UHGV virus genome: UHGV-0133281
Length of the DNA: 38,341 nucleotides
From: a virus
Strand: one strand, 5' to 3'
This document shows, piece after piece, positions 1 through 38,341 of the stretch. Made by a program: the position numbers and the translations under genes. Every line of letters starts with the position of its first letter. Position 1 is the first letter of the stretch. A model generated the notes under the pieces. It worked only from the letters and a program-made list of their open reading frames with translations. It was not told where the DNA came from and did not search any database.

Positions 1-1
1 T

Positions 2-18
2 AAGGTTTTAGCTCTTTT
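2..18. repeat. Left arm of a 17-bp perfect inverted repeat (AAGGTTTTAGCTCTTTT). Its partner lies at 38318-38334. In a circular molecule the two arms form one hairpin with an 8-nt loop followed by a T-run. Candidate attP core or terminator.
   Basis: Reverse complement of 2-18 equals 38318-38334 exactly. A T-rich tract follows at 19-29. The integrase gene is adjacent. Confidence 0.7.
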
Positions 19-129
19 TTGTTTTTCTCTACTTTTCTAAAAATGGAGACGGCGGTCGTATAACCTAGCTTGTAAATGCTGGTTTTGTGGCTGTTTTTAA
101 CTGCTTGATGCAAAAATAATGCAAAAAAA

Positions 130-1260
130 TTATACATACATTTGTTTCATCACTTCATTAACAGCATTACTTTCTTTTTGTTCCATCTCGTCTAGAATGT
201 GTTGATAGGTTTGTAAAGTGGTTACAATATCCTTATGTCCAAGGCGACGAGATACATATTTTATATTTATTCCTTTATACAACATTATTGAAGCATGGGT
301 ATGCCTTAAACCATGACAAGTCAATTCTTTTGTACTGATCTTTCTACAGAATTTACGAAGGACTTTATTTACAGCTGTATTCGATACAAGTTCCATATTG
401 TCATTCAAAAATACTAAATTATTTTCGTTGCGTAGACCAGATTTTAAATAATATTCTTTTTGATGTAACTGTAATTTCTTTAATAAATCGAGCGTATCAT
501 CATCAATAGTGATTATTCTTTTTGATTGATAATTTTTCGTATTAGAGAATGTATTTGTATATTTATAGTCCCATGTTTTATTTACTTTTACAGTTTTATT
601 TTTGAAGTCGATACAGTCCCAAGTCATGCCTATAATTTCTGAAAAACGGCAACCAGTCGCAATACCAAATAGAATAATAAATCGAGAAGTATAAGTGGGT
701 TTTATACCTTCTAATATTTCGTGAACTAGATGGATAGATTCTTGATAATTCAAATATTTCAATTCTTCGTGCTTAGGATTCTTTTTGCCTATAGCTTGTA
801 CTCGATAGGTAGGGTCTCTATGAATAATGCCTTCTTCCAAAGCATCTTTAAGAGCAGCTCGCATATACGTATGATGTTTTTTTACTGAAGCTGTAGCGTG
901 TGTTTCCCCATAGTCATTCAGGGCCTTTTGATATTCTTGTCGAGTCAATTCTTTTAATTTTGTATCAGGAAAATATTTCTCACTAAAATCAACAGCCCGA
1001 CGAATATCACCGTCATTGTCTTGTGATAACTTTCCTTTCCTGTAAACTTCAAACCAGTTTCGAAAATACTCATGAAATAATTTTTCGCCTTCTTTTAGTG
1101 AGTATCCTTTAGAATACCTAGCTTCAATTTCTGATGCTGCCAATTGCGCTTCTTTTTTTGTTGAAAAGCCATTGACGCTTTTTGTTTTATATCGGCCATC
1201 TTTATCTTTATAAGAGACTCGAAATTGCCATCCGCTTTTCAATTTTTTTATGCTTGCCAT
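130..1260 (-). CDS. int: Tyrosine recombinase, phage integrase family
   Basis: 376 aa. C-terminal catalytic region with HGLRHTHASIML...LGH...TYQH (R..H-x-x-R..Y motif set). The N-terminus is typical of phage integrase SAM-like domains. It sits at the genome end next to the candidate attP. Confidence 0.9.
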   Translation of the reverse strand: MASIKKLKSGWQFRVSYKDKDGRYKTKSVNGFSTKKEAQLAASEIEARYSKGYSLKEGEKLFHEYFRNWFEVYRKGKLSQDNDGDIRRAVDFSEKYFPDTKLKELTRQEYQKALNDYGETHATASVKKHHTYMRAALKDALEEGIIHRDPTYRVQAIGKKNPKHEELKYLNYQESIHLVHEILEGIKPTYTSRFIILFGIATGCRFSEIIGMTWDCIDFKNKTVKVNKTWDYKYTNTFSNTKNYQSKRIITIDDDTLDLLKKLQLHQKEYYLKSGLRNENNLVFLNDNMELVSNTAVNKVLRKFCRKISTKELTCHGLRHTHASIMLYKGINIKYVSRRLGHKDIVTTLQTYQHILDEMEQKESNAVNEVMKQMYV

Positions 1261-10814: not shown

Positions 10815-11154
10815 AAGAAACCTTAATCGATAATGTTAGGTGAATTATACATGATTTTGGAAATCTATAATAAAGGCGTAGGTCAATTCTTAACAGCATA
10901 CTATGTAGATCATCTAATGGCAGAAATGAATTTTACCTAAAAGAGTGAACAATTGAAAAAGATAGAGCCATTATAAATTAATTGGACTTTATTTCATGAA
11001 TCAAAAGGTGCAGTGAAAATTAAGCATCGTTAATATAAAAACAACACACAGATTGTTTCTATCCAAGTAACGACAGATACTGTCAAAAAAAGAAGTGACT
11101 GAAATTGTGAAATAGCCACAACATCCGATTCAAGAATTTCAACCAGGGGCATTT

Positions 11155-11200
11155 TAAAATAAAAATCCCTCAACTTTATAGATCTTAGTTGAGGGTAAAT
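11155..11200 (-). terminator. Rho-independent terminator for the reverse-strand DUF4145 gene
   Basis: 9-bp perfect stem CCCTCAACT/AGTTGAGGG (11167-11175 and 11187-11195) with an 11-nt loop. A T-run follows on the minus strand. Confidence 0.6.
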
Positions 11201-11203
11201 GTT

Positions 11204-11935
11204 CTAACTATCTCGTTTTTGAATTGCTTTTAATGCTCCTTCAGGGAGAGTCTGGAAAATGGCATCGATTTTATTAGGCTGAGAAATCTGATTATCAACA
11301 ATAAAATTAACTAATTCTAATAGATTTACAGCTATGTCTTTGTTATCCGTTAAGTCAATTTCTCCAGGATGTACAGCATTGTTTCCAACGACTCTCACTA
11401 TATCTAACGCTTTTTGGACTTGAGCACTTAGACCTTTAGCTACTAGGTTTTTTATTCGATCATTTAAATTAATGCCATCAGGGTCTAATTTTTTAGTTAA
11501 CTTATCAATGGCTAGTCTAGATAAAGCCGCTGAAGCTCTAGGGGAGTCATTTAAAATATTTCGTGCTTCTTCGTATACGGTACGTATATCTTCGGGCATA
11601 TCAGTATTAGGCAAGGGTAATGAAGTAAGATTTCTTGGATAGATTTGCCGTTCTTTGTTAGATCCGTTATCTTTTATCCATATTGATATTTTTTTACAAG
11701 ATTTACATGTAGCTTTTATCAATGTGTATTTCAGGACCGACGATTCATAATCACCACCTAGACCATATGCCCATTGTAACCCAGTAAAAGCTCCACATTG
11801 TGGGCAAATTGTCCCTCGAGTGACAGCATTTGGATTATATGAGCCCAATGAATATCCTGATTCTTTTTCTTTCCAATCTATAAAAGAATGGTCAAAAAGC
11901 GACTGATTTTGTTTGTCAAATACAATTCTTTCCAT
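11204..11935 (-). CDS. Zinc-ribbon plus DUF4145 (HEPN-type) domain protein. Candidate abortive-infection or defence moron.
   Basis: N-terminal CPQCG...CKSCKK. The C-terminal region YEEARNIL...RLAIDKL...VRVVGNNAVHPGEID...VNLLELVNFIV is typical of DUF4145. Opposite strand to its neighbours, with its own terminator. Confidence 0.6.
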   Translation of the reverse strand: MERIVFDKQNQSLFDHSFIDWKEKESGYSLGSYNPNAVTRGTICPQCGAFTGLQWAYGLGGDYESSVLKYTLIKATCKSCKKISIWIKDNGSNKERQIYPRNLTSLPLPNTDMPEDIRTVYEEARNILNDSPRASAALSRLAIDKLTKKLDPDGINLNDRIKNLVAKGLSAQVQKALDIVRVVGNNAVHPGEIDLTDNKDIAVNLLELVNFIVDNQISQPNKIDAIFQTLPEGALKAIQKRDS

Positions 11936-12097
11936 CTATAATCACCTCTTTAATCTTTTACCTAATTATATCAATAAAGAAAGGGAATTTCTATGGCACT
12001 TAGACCATACCAAGAAGAAGTTCATTCTACTGTCCAAATTGAGTGGCAGAATAACAAAAAGAAAACATTATGAGTTTTGCGTATAGGAGGAATCTGA

Positions 12098-33025: not shown

Positions 33026-34327
33026 ATGAAAAAGAAAATTTTAGCAGGAGCGCTTGTCGCTCTGTTTTTTATGCCTACAGCTGTACTTGCCGCTAAAGGA
33101 GATCAAGGTGTGGATTGGGCGATTTATCAAGGCGAACAAGGCCGTTTTGGCTATGCACATGATAAATTCGCTATCGCTCAAATTGGTGGATACAATGCCA
33201 GCGGTATTTATGAACAATACACATATAAAACGCAAGTAGCAAGTGCTATTGCCCAAGGCAAACGTGCGCATACCTATATTTGGTATGACACTTGGGGAAA
33301 CATGGACATTGCAAAAACAACAATGGATTACTTTTTGCCACGTATTCAAACGCCTAAAAATTCCATCGTTGCATTAGATTTTGAACATGGAGCGTTGGCT
33401 AGTGTTCCAGATGGATATGGAGGATATGTAAGTTCAGATGCCGAAAAAGCAGCAAATACAGAGACAATTTTGTACGGTATGCGCAGAATCAAACAGGCTG
33501 GTTATACTCCAATGTATTACAGCTATAAGCCATTTACACTAAATCATGTAAACTATCAACAAATCATCAAAGAGTTTCCTAACTCTTTATGGATTGCTGC
33601 GTATCCTATCGATGGTGTGTCGCCATATCCATTGTATGCTTATTTCCCAAGCATGGATGGTATTGGCATTTGGCAATTCACATCCGCTTATATTGCAGGT
33701 GGTTTAGATGGTAACGTTGATTTAACAGGTATTACGGATAGTGGTTATACAGATACCAATAAGCCAGAAACGGACACGCCAGCAACAGATGCAGGTGAAG
33801 AAATCGAAAAAACACCTAATTCTGATGTTAAAGTCGGCGACACAGTTAAAGTGAAATTTAATGTAGATGCATGGGCAACTGGCGAAGCTATTCCGCAATG
33901 GGTAAAAGGCAATAGTTACAAAGTGCAAGAAGTAACTGGAAGTAGAGTATTGCTAGAGGGCATTTTGTCATGGATTAGCAAAGGTGATATTGAACTATTG
34001 CCAGATGCAACAGTTGTCCCTGATAAGCAACCAGAAGCAACCCATGTGGTACAATACGGTGAAACGTTATCCAGCATTGCTTACCAACATGGCACAGACT
34101 ATCAAACATTGGCGGCATTAAATGGATTGGCAAATCCAAATCTTATCTATTCTGGCCAAGCATTGAAAGTCAATGGATCAGCTACAGTCAATGTTTACAC
34201 GGTTCAATACGGTGATAATTTATCTAGCATTGCAGGTAAACTAGGCACGACTTATCAAACCTTAGCTTCCTTAAACGGATTAGCAAATCCTAACTTGATT
34301 TATCCTGGTCAAACATTGAACTATTGA
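33026..34327 (+). CDS. Endolysin with an N-terminal Sec-type signal peptide, a GH25-like muramidase domain, an SH3b-like domain and two C-terminal LysM repeats
   Basis: MKKKILAGALVALFFMPTAVLAAKGD signal peptide. Two LysM repeats (VVQYGETLSSIA...LNGLANPNLIYSGQAL and YTVQYGDNLSSIA...LNGLANPNLIYPGQTL). Confidence 0.8.
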   Translation: MKKKILAGALVALFFMPTAVLAAKGDQGVDWAIYQGEQGRFGYAHDKFAIAQIGGYNASGIYEQYTYKTQVASAIAQGKRAHTYIWYDTWGNMDIAKTTMDYFLPRIQTPKNSIVALDFEHGALASVPDGYGGYVSSDAEKAANTETILYGMRRIKQAGYTPMYYSYKPFTLNHVNYQQIIKEFPNSLWIAAYPIDGVSPYPLYAYFPSMDGIGIWQFTSAYIAGGLDGNVDLTGITDSGYTDTNKPETDTPATDAGEEIEKTPNSDVKVGDTVKVKFNVDAWATGEAIPQWVKGNSYKVQEVTGSRVLLEGILSWISKGDIELLPDATVVPDKQPEATHVVQYGETLSSIAYQHGTDYQTLAALNGLANPNLIYSGQALKVNGSATVNVYTVQYGDNLSSIAGKLGTTYQTLASLNGLANPNLIYPGQTLNY

Positions 34328-34388: not shown

Positions 34389-34420
34389 TATTATGACTCT
34401 TTTCGATTTAGAAAAGAGGT

Positions 34421-34464
34421 GCTCCTATCTTATGCAAAGTCATTAGATAGGAGCGTTTTAATTT
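34421..34464 (+). terminator. Second hairpin after the endolysin gene (10-bp perfect stem GCTCCTATCT/AGATAGGAGC, 14-nt loop, T-rich tail)
   Basis: Read directly from the sequence. Confidence 0.5.
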
Positions 34465-34863
34465 CATGTATATGTTGCTTAGGTTTAATGCTATCTTATT
34501 ATATAAAGAAAACACCTACCAAATATGCACAATACTTCCCCGAGTTGTGTATGTTTAGTAGGTGTTTTTAATATGGTAGAATATCTTTATCAAACAATTT
34601 TATTTTCATTTTTTATTATCTCTTGCTGCCCCTTCCGAATTAGGTGAATTTTTTTACATAAAATATTGTAAATGTAACGTATTAGAAAATCGAACAAGTA
34701 TTTATATTCAAGTTGTAGCGAATGATGGAAATCTATTAATACATGAGGGAATGGATATTAAGAATAAACTGTTTCGAAATTTACTTACTCTAAGGGAGAG
34801 TTCATAAAAAACTTGTATTAAAATAGTTAATTTGGTTTAATTATATTAATAAAAAGATTTGGA

Positions 34864-37497
34864 GTGATAGTTGTGATTAGGTTTAATCTAAATAGTAGAA
34901 TACTCATGTTTGCTATTTGTTCTTCTATTGAATATGATTTAAGACAGTATTTAATTACAAACCCTGTGAGTGTTTCTCTGCCTGATGAACTTTATAAAAA
35001 GGCTGTGAAAAGAAATGATAATATTCGTAATTTTTGCAATGCAAGTAGTATAGAAGAAATATTAATTGAACTAGACATGGGTGATTTAATAAGTATTATA
35101 AATTCAAAAGCTCCTAAATTTGGAATTAATATCGAAAATAAAAAGCGATTAAGCACAATCTTTGATAAAATAATCCCAATTAGAAATAAAATTATGCATA
35201 CTAGACCTATAGAATTTTCAGATAGAGGAATTTTAGAAGAAGCTTTATATAAAATTGATGAAGAGATACCATTCATCGATTGGAACGAGCTGTCTAGAAC
35301 TAGAGAAAAAGTAAAAAATAATCCTCAAAAATTAATAGTAGAAACTACTTTCAATCCAGAACCTGACAATACAACTAATATATATCATAACCTTCCTGTT
35401 CCAGAATTTGATGATACTGGATATATTGGTAGAAAAAAAGAAATAAAGGAATTACACAATTTAATTAATTCAGATAAAAATCAAATTATAACAGTAGTTG
35501 GAAATGGTGGGATTGGAAAAACTGCTATTGTAGTAAAAAGTTTATATGAGTTACTAGATGGCCCCAATCCATATAAGTTTGAAGCAATTATTTGGATTTC
35601 ATTGAAAACAAAAACGTTATCAAATGGAGAATTTATTAATATAAATGATAGTATAAATGAGCTTGGGAAAATGTATTCTGAACTTCATAAAAATACAGTA
35701 GATGATACTGAAGATTCAAAAAAAGACATTTTAAATTTTATGAATGAGTTTAAAACGCTACTAGTTATTGATAACCTAGAAACAATACCTACGGAAGAAA
35801 TAATAGATTTTTTAAAAGATATACCTTCTAAATCAAAAGTTTTGCTTACTTCAAGAAGTGGATTAGGTGAATTAGAAAACAGATATTCTCTTCAAGAGAT
35901 GAGTAAAGAAGATGCAAGGCAGTATTTTATATCTTTATCAAACTATTATCAATTAGAACTACACAAACAAGACCATGATAAATTAGACAATCTTATTAAA
36001 AATCATTTATATTCAAGCCCGTTATCAATCAAATGGTATATAACAAGTGTGTTTTATGGAGCAGATCCTATATCGGTTCTGAATGATAAAAACGATTTAG
36101 TTGAATTTGCAATGTCAAATATAGTAGATCATTTGACAAGAATGGAAATAGAAATTTTATGGCTATTATTAATTGAAGGAAAATCATTAAGTTATGGCGA
36201 AATAGATTACTATTTAGAACCCAAAGATGTACAAACTCTTATTACTAGTATAAATAAACTATCTTCTACTAGTATGTTGCGTTCCCATTATAGTGGTAGT
36301 TATGAAATTAATGGAATGGCTAAAGATTATTTAAAAACTTACAAAGCTCCGAATGGCGAATTTATAAAAAATATAAGTAAAAAAAGAACTTTTTTAAATA
36401 GTATGATGCAAGAAATAAAAACAAAGAATGAAGCTGAGCCTTTTAATCCTAAATCTCTGTTTAGTAATATGAAGAATGAGAATACTAAAATAGCATCTTA
36501 CTATTTAATAAAAGCTTTAGAATATAGTGGAAGAAGAGATTGGGAAAACGCAGAATTGATGATAAAAAAAGCAGAGAATGTCGCTCCAAATTATTTCGAA
36601 GTATATAAAATCAAAGCATTCATAAGTGCTGAGAACAATAATTTATTGGATGCAATTACATCATATAGAATTGCGATTGAGAATACACAAACAGAATTAG
36701 AGCTAGCCTCTGTTTACTATTTGTTTAGTGTGTTTTACACGATTAAGTTAACTGACTATATTTTGGCCAAAGAATTTATTGAGAAAGCAGATGAACTTTC
36801 AAAAAATCAACCTATAATTACTTTAGAAAAAGGTAGAGTATATATGTATTTAGGAGAGTATGAAAATGCAAGAGAAGTTTTTGAAGGAATCAATAAATCT
36901 GATTTGAAAACTGATAAAATATTAAATCAATATGCAAGTAGATTGTCAGACTTATATAGAAGAATGGCCGGAAATTATAATAATAGAGATAAGGAAAAAA
37001 AACATTTTTATTTAAAAAAGGCTATAGATGTAATTAATGAGTTAACAAATGTAGATCCAAAAACAGGTGTTACACTAATTAGAACTTTAACGGATTTAAC
37101 ATACAACCTATCTTATGAACCATCTTTAGATTTATTTAACTCAACATTTAATAGATATATAGGGATTATACAAAATAATAAAAGTAATTACATTAAAAAC
37201 CTGCGTAAACAGGTTATTTATAATAACACGTTATTACCAAAATTAGTTGTTGAAAAAGCATCTAATTTAGGCGTGAGTTTTTCAAGAAAAGCTAATGAAA
37301 TTACAGAAAATAACAAAGGAATAATTATTAAACTAACTGAAACATTTGGATTTATAAAAAACGCGCATCAAAATTTTTATTTTAAAGTTTATGATATTAA
37401 GTATTCTGATCCTAATTTAGGAGACAAAGTTTCGTTTGAAATTCGTGAAAATGAAAGAGGAGATGAAGCAACTCATATAGAAAAATGTATTGACTAA
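34864..37497 (+). CDS. HEPN / NB-ARC-type STAND NTPase / TPR-like repeats / C-terminal cold-shock-domain protein. Candidate single-gene Avs-like antiviral or abortive-infection system.
   Basis: N-terminal IPIRNKIMHTRP (R-N-x3-H HEPN motif). GRKKEI..ITVVGNGGIGKTAIV (Walker A), LLVIDNLE (Walker B), VLLTSRS (hhhTTR sensor), SSPLSIKW (GLPL-like). C-terminal helical repeats. The C-terminus has FGFIKNAHQNFYFKVYD...VSFEI (CSD RNP1- and RNP2-like). Very AT-rich. The start could instead be 34873 or 34906. Confidence 0.7.
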   Translation: MIVVIRFNLNSRILMFAICSSIEYDLRQYLITNPVSVSLPDELYKKAVKRNDNIRNFCNASSIEEILIELDMGDLISIINSKAPKFGINIENKKRLSTIFDKIIPIRNKIMHTRPIEFSDRGILEEALYKIDEEIPFIDWNELSRTREKVKNNPQKLIVETTFNPEPDNTTNIYHNLPVPEFDDTGYIGRKKEIKELHNLINSDKNQIITVVGNGGIGKTAIVVKSLYELLDGPNPYKFEAIIWISLKTKTLSNGEFININDSINELGKMYSELHKNTVDDTEDSKKDILNFMNEFKTLLVIDNLETIPTEEIIDFLKDIPSKSKVLLTSRSGLGELENRYSLQEMSKEDARQYFISLSNYYQLELHKQDHDKLDNLIKNHLYSSPLSIKWYITSVFYGADPISVLNDKNDLVEFAMSNIVDHLTRMEIEILWLLLIEGKSLSYGEIDYYLEPKDVQTLITSINKLSSTSMLRSHYSGSYEINGMAKDYLKTYKAPNGEFIKNISKKRTFLNSMMQEIKTKNEAEPFNPKSLFSNMKNENTKIASYYLIKALEYSGRRDWENAELMIKKAENVAPNYFEVYKIKAFISAENNNLLDAITSYRIAIENTQTELELASVYYLFSVFYTIKLTDYILAKEFIEKADELSKNQPIITLEKGRVYMYLGEYENAREVFEGINKSDLKTDKILNQYASRLSDLYRRMAGNYNNRDKEKKHFYLKKAIDVINELTNVDPKTGVTLIRTLTDLTYNLSYEPSLDLFNSTFNRYIGIIQNNKSNYIKNLRKQVIYNNTLLPKLVVEKASNLGVSFSRKANEITENNKGIIIKLTETFGFIKNAHQNFYFKVYDIKYSDPNLGDKVSFEIRENERGDEATHIEKCID

Positions 37498-37552
37498 ATT
37501 ATCTAGGACATGTAATATATAACTTATAATAAGAGTGACGCAAATAGTGTAG

Positions 37553-37582
37553 AAAGGGTGGCTTTAAGCTAGCCCTTTTTTG
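37553..37582 (+). terminator. Rho-independent terminator after the STAND gene
   Basis: AAGGGTGGCTTTAAGCTAGCCCTT hairpin followed by TTTTTTG. Confidence 0.6.
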
Positions 37583-37897
37583 TTATATGAACTATTTGTA
37601 ATGTGTAAAAAATGTTTTAAGGAAAAAATATTTTCCATTAATAGGATGCTTATCTGGGAAAATGCAGGTGTATTAATTTTGGCATAAAAAATAAGCCGTT
37701 TGTTTCATATTTACTGTATTTACCGATGCAATAAATATATGGTCGATATAGAAGGATAATGGAATGAAAGCGTACAATTTGAAGTACAACATATGAAAAT
37801 AGTCAATATTTATGAATATATTTCCGTAACTGGTACGCCAGAATAAAAAAACAAACCTAGCTCCCAGATGAGAGTGAGGCTTATTTTCTATACATGT

Positions 37898-38026
37898 TTA
37901 TTTAGGTTCACGAATGATATAAATCATATCGCTATCAATAAATTGTTTTTCTTTGTATTCAAAGTCTTCACCGTCATATTGTTCTAAATATTCAACGTCC
38001 TTCTCGGTTACGATCAAGCCGCACAT
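37898..38026 (-). CDS. Small hypothetical protein (42 aa), not in the ORF track
   Basis: On the minus strand, an ATG sits 6 nt after AAAGGAG. ORF MCGLIVTEKDVEYLEQYDGEDFEYKEKQFIDSDMIYIIREPK. Confidence 0.35.
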   Translation of the reverse strand: MCGLIVTEKDVEYLEQYDGEDFEYKEKQFIDSDMIYIIREPK

Positions 38027-38255
38027 CTTTTGCTCCTTTCATTGTTAGTTGTAAGTCACTAATTAACTTACATGTTTTTTATATCTTTATAGGGATATAA
38101 AAGTCAACAGGTTTTCCAAAGAAATTTAAACTTTTTTGAAAATAAGAACAAATATAAATGCTCTACTTCTCAATCATGGAAAGTAGAGCTTTTTTGTATG
38201 TAAAATATGCGAATAGTATTTGATGAAATAAAAATAGACTTTAAAATGATCAGAA

Positions 38256-38334
38256 TGCAAAACCAGTGCAAAATATTTTGCATTTCTCTTCTTTTTTATC
38301 CTTTTCTTATAGAAATTAAAAGAGCTAAAACCTT
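38256..38334. repeat. Right-side attP-proximal elements. TGCAAAA repeats at 38257-38263 and 38267-38273, including the 16-bp palindrome TGCAAAATATTTTGCA at 38267-38282. The right arm of the 17-bp inverted repeat is at 38318-38334.
   Basis: The same ATGCAAAAA motif occurs twice at 108-127 on the integrase side. 38318-38334 is the exact reverse complement of 2-18. Confidence 0.6.
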
Positions 38335-38341
38335 TATTTTA

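Follow-up and report, generated by a model that had tools for sequence, protein, structure and literature searches.

Bacterial NLR-like immune proteins, among them Avs1-24 and the bNACHT proteins, combine an N-terminal effector, a central STAND NTPase and a C-terminal helical-repeat sensor, and each is encoded by a single gene that resides in defence islands and prophages and leads to abortive infection (PMC13581612, PMC9122126). We have analysed a gene of this general layout near the end of UHGV virus genome UHGV-0133281, a stretch of 38,341 nucleotides referred to below as the window. Its predicted product carries an N-terminal HEPN domain, an NB-ARC-type STAND NTPase, tetratricopeptide-like (TPR-like) repeats and a C-terminal cold-shock domain (CSD). 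Sequence comparisons identify it as a new Enterococcus-prophage member of a widespread, previously catalogued and uncharacterised NB-ARC-type NLR-like family. It does not represent a new class of system, and its existence would not surprise a specialist.

The closest description dates from 2013, when Anantharaman, Makarova, Burroughs, Koonin and Aravind reported bacterial proteins in which a HEPN domain at the N-terminus and a STAND NTPase are followed by a cold-shock-like OB domain at the C-terminus, citing one from B. cereus (gi 229028907); their Table 1 also lists "STAND-ATPase, TPR, S1" fusions under the Swt1-like HEPN domains, exemplified by Npun_F6454, MED222_16016 and Desac_1927 (PMC3710099). 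Those proteins share with the present family the order of modules, a predicted role in conflict or defence, and Rx4-6H motifs considered "mostly active". The 2013 record is a computational listing of architectures, with no name, trigger, target or phenotype. We infer that the present family, which includes B. cereus homologues, corresponds to these catalogued proteins, the two having been compared by description and not by sequence. In addition, the supplementary discussion of the bNACHT preprint names HEPN RNases, as well as OB domains of the S1/cold-shock type, as effector and adaptor modules of bacterial NACHT proteins, and places some effector domains at the extreme C-terminus. An initial annotation of the window had called the gene a candidate new system and had considered the CSD foreign to described architectures. 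Neither statement can be kept in view of the 2013 catalogue, the OB domains of the bNACHT preprint and the analogous layout of SAMD9 and Avs9.

The same annotation used the term Avs-like. The effector, STAND module and large C-terminal sensor do lie in one polypeptide that is encoded alone, as in Avs proteins. However, the NTPase resembles the NB-ARC/AP-ATPase type, the predicted effector is a HEPN RNase where characterised Avs effectors are DNases, SIR2, TIR or protease domains, and a CSD follows the repeats. Moreover, PADLOC v2, which models Avs1-5, gave no AVAST/Avs match at E ≤ 1, the only hits being weak ones to CSD_V, PDC-M34B and mad8. Avs-like is therefore appropriate as a description of layout and not as a statement of membership. 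A 2026 census of at least 90 Avs families names no HEPN-CSD family in its main text. Lee et al. (2026) distinguish 198 defence-associated STAND clades, and their STAND tree has 589 clades.

Three further groups of proteins invite comparison. The animal proteins SAMD9/SAMD9L have the order RNase-SIR2-STAND-TPR-OB, and Avs9 has been reported as their bacterial structural analogue; an RNase effector, a STAND NTPase, TPRs and a C-terminal OB domain follow one another in the same N-to-C order as here. Human SAMD9 aligns with our full-length model in Foldseek with E 1.4e-8 over 897 aligned columns, but the TM-scores of about 0.15 make this modelled resemblance an architectural one and not evidence of orthology. 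The SAMD9 effector, in contrast, is AlbA_2/Schlafen-like and not HEPN, and SAM and SIR2 domains are also present. The solo or prophage-borne HEPN Abi RNases (the AbiF/AbiD Abi_2 family, HepS and Tha) lack the NTPase switch, the repeats and the CSD; AbiF is regulated by a noncoding RNA and HepS by direct remodelling of its tetramer. Finally, the C-terminal domain weakly matches retron-associated effectors (NCBIfam retron_eff_Se72, E 2e-4; PADLOC CSD_V, E 2e-5), which show that CSDs serve immunity. Those effectors are stand-alone proteins of about 60 amino acids (aa) that act with a reverse transcriptase and msDNA, whereas the present CSD forms the C-terminal end of a STAND protein.

Domain organisation of the protein

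The NTPase is the only module that exceeds a curated cutoff when the prophage protein is scanned alone (NB-ARC, PF00931, E 4.3e-12, 46.3 bits against a gathering cutoff of 23.5); the NACHT and nSTAND models of Pfam score lower and stay under their own cutoffs. As reportedly defined by Leipe et al. in 2004, STAND proteins have a Walker A motif GxxxxGK[ST], a Walker B motif hhhhD with a second acidic residue, an hhGRxxE motif, a sensor-1 arginine, and helical and winged-helix domains. Among 37 sequences of the family, Walker A residues G210-G213, G215 and K216, which agree with GxxxxGK[ST], are invariant. The same holds for G186 and R187 of the hhGRxxE motif (YIGRKKE), for R328 of the sensor-1 TSR, and for P383, L384, I386, K387 and W388 of the GLPL-type motif. 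Where DD or DE would be usual, the Walker B motif reads hhhhD-N-x-E throughout the family, and D300, N301 and E303 are invariant. Such a motif suggests that the switch binds NTP but may hydrolyse it poorly, or that E303 is used for hydrolysis. Binding of ATP by the module is likely, judging from the motifs.

In the full-length AlphaFold2 (AF2) model (mean predicted local distance difference test, pLDDT, 81.7; predicted template modelling score, pTM, 0.57), the NTPase consists of an alpha/beta core, a helical domain and a winged helix, with helices over residues 345-465 and a beta-hairpin at residues 469-479. The top PDB matches of this model in Foldseek are the plant CNL resistosomes Sr35, ZAR1 and NRC, together with CED-4, Apaf-1 and human SAMD9; Avs3 ranks no higher than 47th. 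Motifs and profile scores assign the NTPase to the NB-ARC/AP-ATPase clade. The linker that precedes the P-loop, YHNLPxPEFDDTGYIGR (35383-35433, residues 171-187), is almost invariant in the family, yet the AF2 model gives it a pLDDT below 50; it may serve regulation or form an interface between the HEPN domain and the NTPase.

The N-terminal domain is probably a HEPN domain of the Swt1/Abi2 clade, and this is the weakest of the four domain calls. Its motif, RNKIMH, has the form that characterises the superfamily, Rx4-6H with a polar residue after the arginine. In 30 highly divergent N-termini of the family, R104 and H109 are invariant and N105 is at least 90% conserved; all three are invariant among the 37 sequences, and E20, D22, R104 and H109 are strictly conserved across the large multi-phylum family. 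For the Pfam models HEPN_Swt1 (PF18731) and Abi_2 (PF07751), the prophage protein obtains 12.2 bits against a gathering cutoff of 27.5. Family members reach E 4e-6 (21/30) and 5e-4 (14/30), scores that are sub-threshold but consistently point to HEPN; none of those scanned attains the Pfam cutoff of any HEPN family. A Foldseek search of the N-terminal model against the PDB gave no significant match. Searches of the PDB with N-terminal profiles gave a lone spurious match to Cmr7 (E 0.05) in one case and none in another. Alignment of the N-terminal profile to one Abi_2 protein with hhalign was not significant, and the sole aligned segment superimposes the two RNxxxH motifs.

The region between the NTPase and the CSD has only sub-threshold TPR matches in Pfam when the prophage protein is scanned alone. 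In the AF2 model, residues 495-800 form a helical-repeat solenoid, for which Foldseek returns designed consensus-TPR proteins. The CSD of the single protein also falls below the Pfam cutoff (PF00313, 18.1 against 27 bits). A profile built from 19 family C-termini, however, finds solved CSDs, namely those of UNR/CSDE1 (E 9e-12) and of bacterial CspA/CspB (E 1e-4 to 1e-5), and hhalign aligns it to E. coli CspA with 95.7% probability and E 1e-8, placing FGFI on RNP1 and YF on RNP2. The model contains a five-stranded beta-barrel at residues 815-871 (strands 815-821, 825-829, 834-838, 852-860 and 863-871), with block-mean pLDDT values of about 76-91 over residues 811-874. The aromatic motifs are well preserved: G826 and F827 of RNP1 and F837 of RNP2 are invariant among the 37 sequences, and the RNP2 histidine, which is absent from the prophage protein, is present in distant members (FFH/FAH).

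These results agree with the four modules proposed in the initial annotation, every quoted motif of which can be located at exact coordinates in the reading frame (Table 1). The NB-ARC, TPR-like and CSD assignments hold, the HEPN assignment holds with moderate confidence, and the repeats extend over about 300 residues.

Family distribution and genomic setting

A word-indexed search found 342 homologues, of which the 120 best-scoring are mostly about 870 aa long, aligned over nearly their whole length, and chiefly from Bacillota. When 1.84 billion representatives were searched exhaustively with a profile, 838 proteins (clusters at 50% identity) reached E ≤ 1e-30. The best 150 of these all have E < 1e-122, and 138 of the 150 measure 780 aa or more. 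The HEPN profile matches every one of these 138 full-length representatives, and RxxxxH and the P-loop are both intact in 133. The CSD profile, derived from Firmicutes, is matched by 95 of the 138, and most of the others visibly end in GFI...FFH...G..V.F. Reference genomes add members from Bacteroidota, Alpha- and Gammaproteobacteria, Myxococcales (Myxococcota) and Chloroflexota, in which RNRVMH precedes the P-loop by about 110 aa and the tails are CSD-like. By these comparisons the family is large and old, and the same four modules recur in several phyla. Conservation is highest in the nucleotide-binding domain (mean pairwise identity 0.56) and lowest in the TPR region and the CSD (0.40). The PHROGs entry of the family, phrog_24039, is annotated as of unknown function. 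The breadth of the family, like the 2013 listing, speaks against the novelty first assumed.

The neighbourhoods of the homologues were examined in 49 loci, and no family of open reading frames (ORFs) lying within 4 kb of the gene occurs in more than three of them. Since no neighbour is conserved, the STAND gene probably works alone. All five homologue contexts inspected, and three prophage contexts, lie on mobile elements or islands, a small sample that is not a statistical defence score. The E. casseliflavus homologue resides in an integrase/Rep element, with a Gabija-like pair of OLD-TOPRIM and UvrD genes about 2.5 kb 3' of it, and another homologue lies in an island together with Wadjet JetC/JetD, a TIR protein, PLD, SymE and restriction-modification genes. 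A B. cereus homologue is in a prophage, one of L. lactis in a region resembling an integrative and conjugative element (ICE), and one of Leuconostoc in an integrase/Prim-Pol element. Satellite-like and ICE-like elements are among the carriers.

In three prophage lineages, the present one and two viral contigs, the gene follows the endolysin, once with Abi_2 nearby. The latter case is a Streptococcus-like viral contig (L013, 2854-7743), on which the endolysin is followed by Abi_2 (an AbiD/F-type HEPN protein) and then by the STAND gene; from the gene order, two predicted HEPN-based systems are stacked at this post-lysin hotspot. In the window, the gene has a G+C content (GC) of 26.7%, compared with 36.4% for positions 4000-34327, the body of the element. 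The low GC, the mobile-element contexts and the lack of a conserved neighbour bear out the earlier view that this is a lone STAND gene, acquired horizontally and carried by a prophage, and a candidate for defence with an RNase effector.

Proposed function and competing explanations

We propose, with a probability of roughly 0.6, that the gene encodes a stand-alone, prophage-borne immune protein of the NB-ARC-clade NLR-like type, which would protect the lysogen from other phages by abortive infection. This proposal is well supported by context, although not proven; it brings together the architecture, the residue conservation, the solitary gene, its association with mobile elements and defence islands, its own Shine-Dalgarno sequence and terminator, and its atypical GC. 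The resting protein would be a monomeric, nucleotide-bound, autoinhibited switch. The TPR-like solenoid and the CSD would bind an infection-specific ligand, probably a phage protein by analogy with characterised Avs proteins, with the CSD adding RNA or single-stranded DNA (ssDNA) contacts or recruiting substrate. Binding of the ligand may then permit NTP-dependent oligomerisation of the NB-ARC module, which would allow the N-terminal HEPN domains to dimerise, as HEPN RNases must in order to form a composite Rx4-6H active site. The active RNase would cut cellular and/or phage RNA (tRNA, rRNA or mRNA), so that translation stops and the infection is aborted. Precedents exist for both steps, namely for activation of N-terminal effectors by STAND oligomerisation in the Avs families (PMC13581612), and for activation of HEPN dimers by phage proteins in the prophage HEPN Abi proteins HepS and Tha (PMC13043305).

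Several points weigh against this proposal. We found no experimental study of any HEPN-NB-ARC-CSD family member in the literature, and no defence model of PADLOC v2 covers the protein. With the DN form of Walker B, NTP hydrolysis may be weak or absent. The relative placement of the domains in the AF2 model is uncertain (pTM 0.57), and the proposed trigger, the target RNA and what the CSD would contribute are hypothetical.

The CSD could serve as a sensor, a substrate recruiter or an autoinhibitor. One tentative extension of the proposal is that it makes the family a nucleic-acid-coupled bacterial NLR, in which the ATP-gated HEPN RNase would be activated or targeted by way of the CSD, either through binding of phage ssDNA or RNA or through docking onto translating mRNA or ribosomes. 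If this is true, the SAMD9-type RNase-STAND-TPR-OB design would have a counterpart in prokaryotes, with a mode of sensing unlike the protein-fold recognition shown for all Avs families with an identified trigger.

In a rival reading, the CSD itself would be the primary sensor of phage nucleic acid (an ssDNA replication intermediate, single-stranded RNA (ssRNA) or a structured transcript), and the main task of the TPR region would be autoinhibition or packing of the oligomer; the protein would then be a bacterial NLR triggered by nucleic acid. This reading appears unlikely. It is consistent with the retention of the CSD, which a profile detects in at least 95 of the 138 representatives and inspection reveals in most of the others, with its occurrence in Bacteroidota, Proteobacteria, Myxococcota and Chloroflexota, with the invariant RNP1/RNP2 positions, with the likeness to the retron-associated effectors and with the C-terminal OB fold of SAMD9/9L. 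However, a lone CSD binds short stretches of ssRNA or ssDNA, is not very selective for their sequence, and for this reason would discriminate poorly between self and non-self. It is also hard to see a fast-diverging TPR solenoid of 300 aa as a spacer, and the Avs families with known triggers all sense phage proteins through their repeat region (PMC13581612).

It is rather improbable that the gene is instead a conflict or addiction module serving the mobile element, through post-segregational killing, shut-off of host RNA at the element's own induction or competition between elements. In its favour, mobile elements or islands carry the gene as cargo in every case, and HEPN RNases are frequent toxins of toxin-antitoxin systems (PMC3710099). 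Nevertheless, none of the 49 loci shows a conserved antitoxin-like neighbour, the small ORF downstream of the gene in the window does not travel with the family, and a ligand-gated STAND switch of 874 aa is unlike addiction toxins. Several loci, moreover, adjoin bona fide anti-phage systems. A post-lysin site near the attachment site (att) is, in addition, the usual place of morons expressed during lysogeny, which also counts against an addiction module.

Least probable is a non-immune, signal-transducing STAND regulator like MalT, AfsR or GutR, acting on RNA metabolism or the cold or stress response through the CSD with a HEPN domain that binds and does not cut RNA. In favour of this, CSDs are classic RNA chaperones. 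Many STAND clades also consist of regulators without a role in defence and are scattered among the defence clades (PMC13581612). Against it, the catalytic arginine and histidine of the HEPN motif are invariant family-wide, the Pfam scan revealed no helix-turn-helix or other output domain, and the distribution is patchy and borne by mobile elements or islands, with atypical composition.

Should the abortive-infection function be confirmed, this protein would be the first experimentally characterised member of an NB-ARC-type NLR family whose effector is a HEPN RNase and which comprises hundreds of clusters at 50% identity from several phyla. As part of a natural E. faecalis prophage, it would also offer a tractable case for what a C-terminal OB/CSD adds to a STAND sensor, and the same question about the OB module arises for human SAMD9/9L. 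The family is a good target for experiments, and its CSD poses a real question on the coupling of STAND immunity to nucleic acids. A confirmed prophage-borne abortive-infection gene in E. faecalis would also bear on the host range of therapeutic phages.

Expression signals and prophage setting

The uninterrupted ORF named in the initial annotation is present, and its start has been revised. The GTG at 34873 is most likely the real start, because a GGAG Shine-Dalgarno sequence lies at 34861-34864, with the GTG 8 nt further on, and 36 homologues start at the equivalent MxxFNL; the product then has 874 aa instead of the 877 given before. An NCBI entry with 100% identity and only 777 aa was considered as a shorter isoform and rejected, as it results from truncation at a contig end. 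The earlier statements that the gene is flanked by terminators and is more AT-rich than the rest of the phage were both confirmed, with two hairpins with U-tracts on the 5' side and one terminator on the 3' side (Table 1). About 50 nt around the latter are also kept 3' of the E. casseliflavus homologue.

Table 1. Coordinates of the features discussed, in window positions; residues are counted from the GTG at 34873 (874 aa).
Feature	Position	Strand	Remark
att core, 55 bp	1..55		repeated at L001 3181-3235, within 3' end of host tmRNA gene
Integrase	130-1260	-	
Endolysin	33026-34327	+	
Two tandem hairpin terminators after endolysin	34416-34459 and 34508-34569	+	phage backbone; left edge of cargo island
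Cargo island, 3.6 kb, ~27% GC	34576..38140		between lysis module and att-proximal backbone; approximate limits
Promoter-like site TTAAAA-18-TATATT	34818-34847	+	consensus match 9/12; not evidence of function
Promoter-like site and Shine-Dalgarno sequence, combined	34818..34864	+	
ORF	34864..37497	+	mechanical ORF; 9 nt longer at 5' end than likely coding sequence
Coding sequence, predicted HEPN-NB-ARC-TPR-CSD protein, 874 aa	34873..37497	+	GTG start, TAA stop
N-terminal domain, predicted all-alpha, probable HEPN, Swt1/Abi2 clade, residues 5-157	34885..35343	+	profile matches; Foldseek negative
E20 and D22 of HEPN domain	34930-34938	+	
Rx4H putative catalytic motif RNKIMH (R104, N105, H109)	35182..35199	+	
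Linker YHNLPvPEFDDTGYIGRKKE	35383..35442	+	nearly invariant; ends in STAND-type hhGRxxE motif before P-loop
NB-ARC nucleotide-binding domain, residues 186-345	35428..35907	+	
Walker A GNGGIGKT, residues 210-217	35500-35523	+	
Walker B LLVIDNLE, residues 296-303	35758-35781	+	
Sensor-1 TSR within VLLTSRS	35839-35859	+	
STAND helical and winged-helix domains, residues 346-494	35908..36354	+	
GLPL-like SSPLSIKW	36013-36036	+	in helical domain
TPR-like alpha-helical repeat region, residues 495-800	36355..37272	+	presumed sensor
C-terminal cold-shock (OB-fold) domain, residues 814-872	37312..37488	+	
RNP1-like TFGFIKN	37342-37362	+	
RNP2-like FYFKV	37375-37389	+	
Intrinsic terminator of STAND gene	37551..37586	+	GC-rich hairpin 37551-37580 and U6
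42-aa acidic ORF	37898-38026	-	strong AAAGGAG ribosome-binding site; own terminator hairpin ~37852-37889; inside low-GC island

The window holds an entire E. faecalis prophage, whose integration site is ssrA and whose att core measures 55 bp. Window positions 35162-38341 are 99.8% identical to a contig of E. faecalis (L001), and the match ends at the last base of the window. Integration in ssrA follows because the next 55 bp of that contig equal window positions 1-55 and enter the 3' end of the tmRNA gene; this right junction of the prophage, with the repeated core and the overlapping gene, lies at L001 3181-3587. The last approximately 25 bases and the first approximately 18 bases of the window form an inverted repeat, which would give a hairpin once the element circularises.

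The limits of the cargo island that holds the STAND gene were inferred from matches to other Enterococcus phages, which end at about 34575 and restart at about 38141. The tandem hairpins after the endolysin are unusually long and stable (-22 and -31 kcal/mol; z -5.6 and -7.8) and end in U-tracts. They were considered as an AbiF-like RNA antitoxin or regulator of the HEPN protein. This was rejected, as they are kept after the lysin in phages without the STAND gene and are therefore backbone terminators. Phage IME197 and relatives also have them. The gene had also been described as the last one before attP. This is nearly correct: the 42-aa ORF, on the reverse strand, lies between the gene and att. 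This ORF has no PHROG match and no homologue beside any other family member, and was on these grounds rejected as a partner or antitoxin.

In the early region of the prophage, a 243-aa ORF (11204-11935, reverse strand) matches DUF4145 (PF13643, E 5e-16), and the GC skew flips locally at 11001-12000. DUF4145 is a HEPN family in the 2013 classification, and the ORF is a candidate for a second HEPN defence moron of the prophage.

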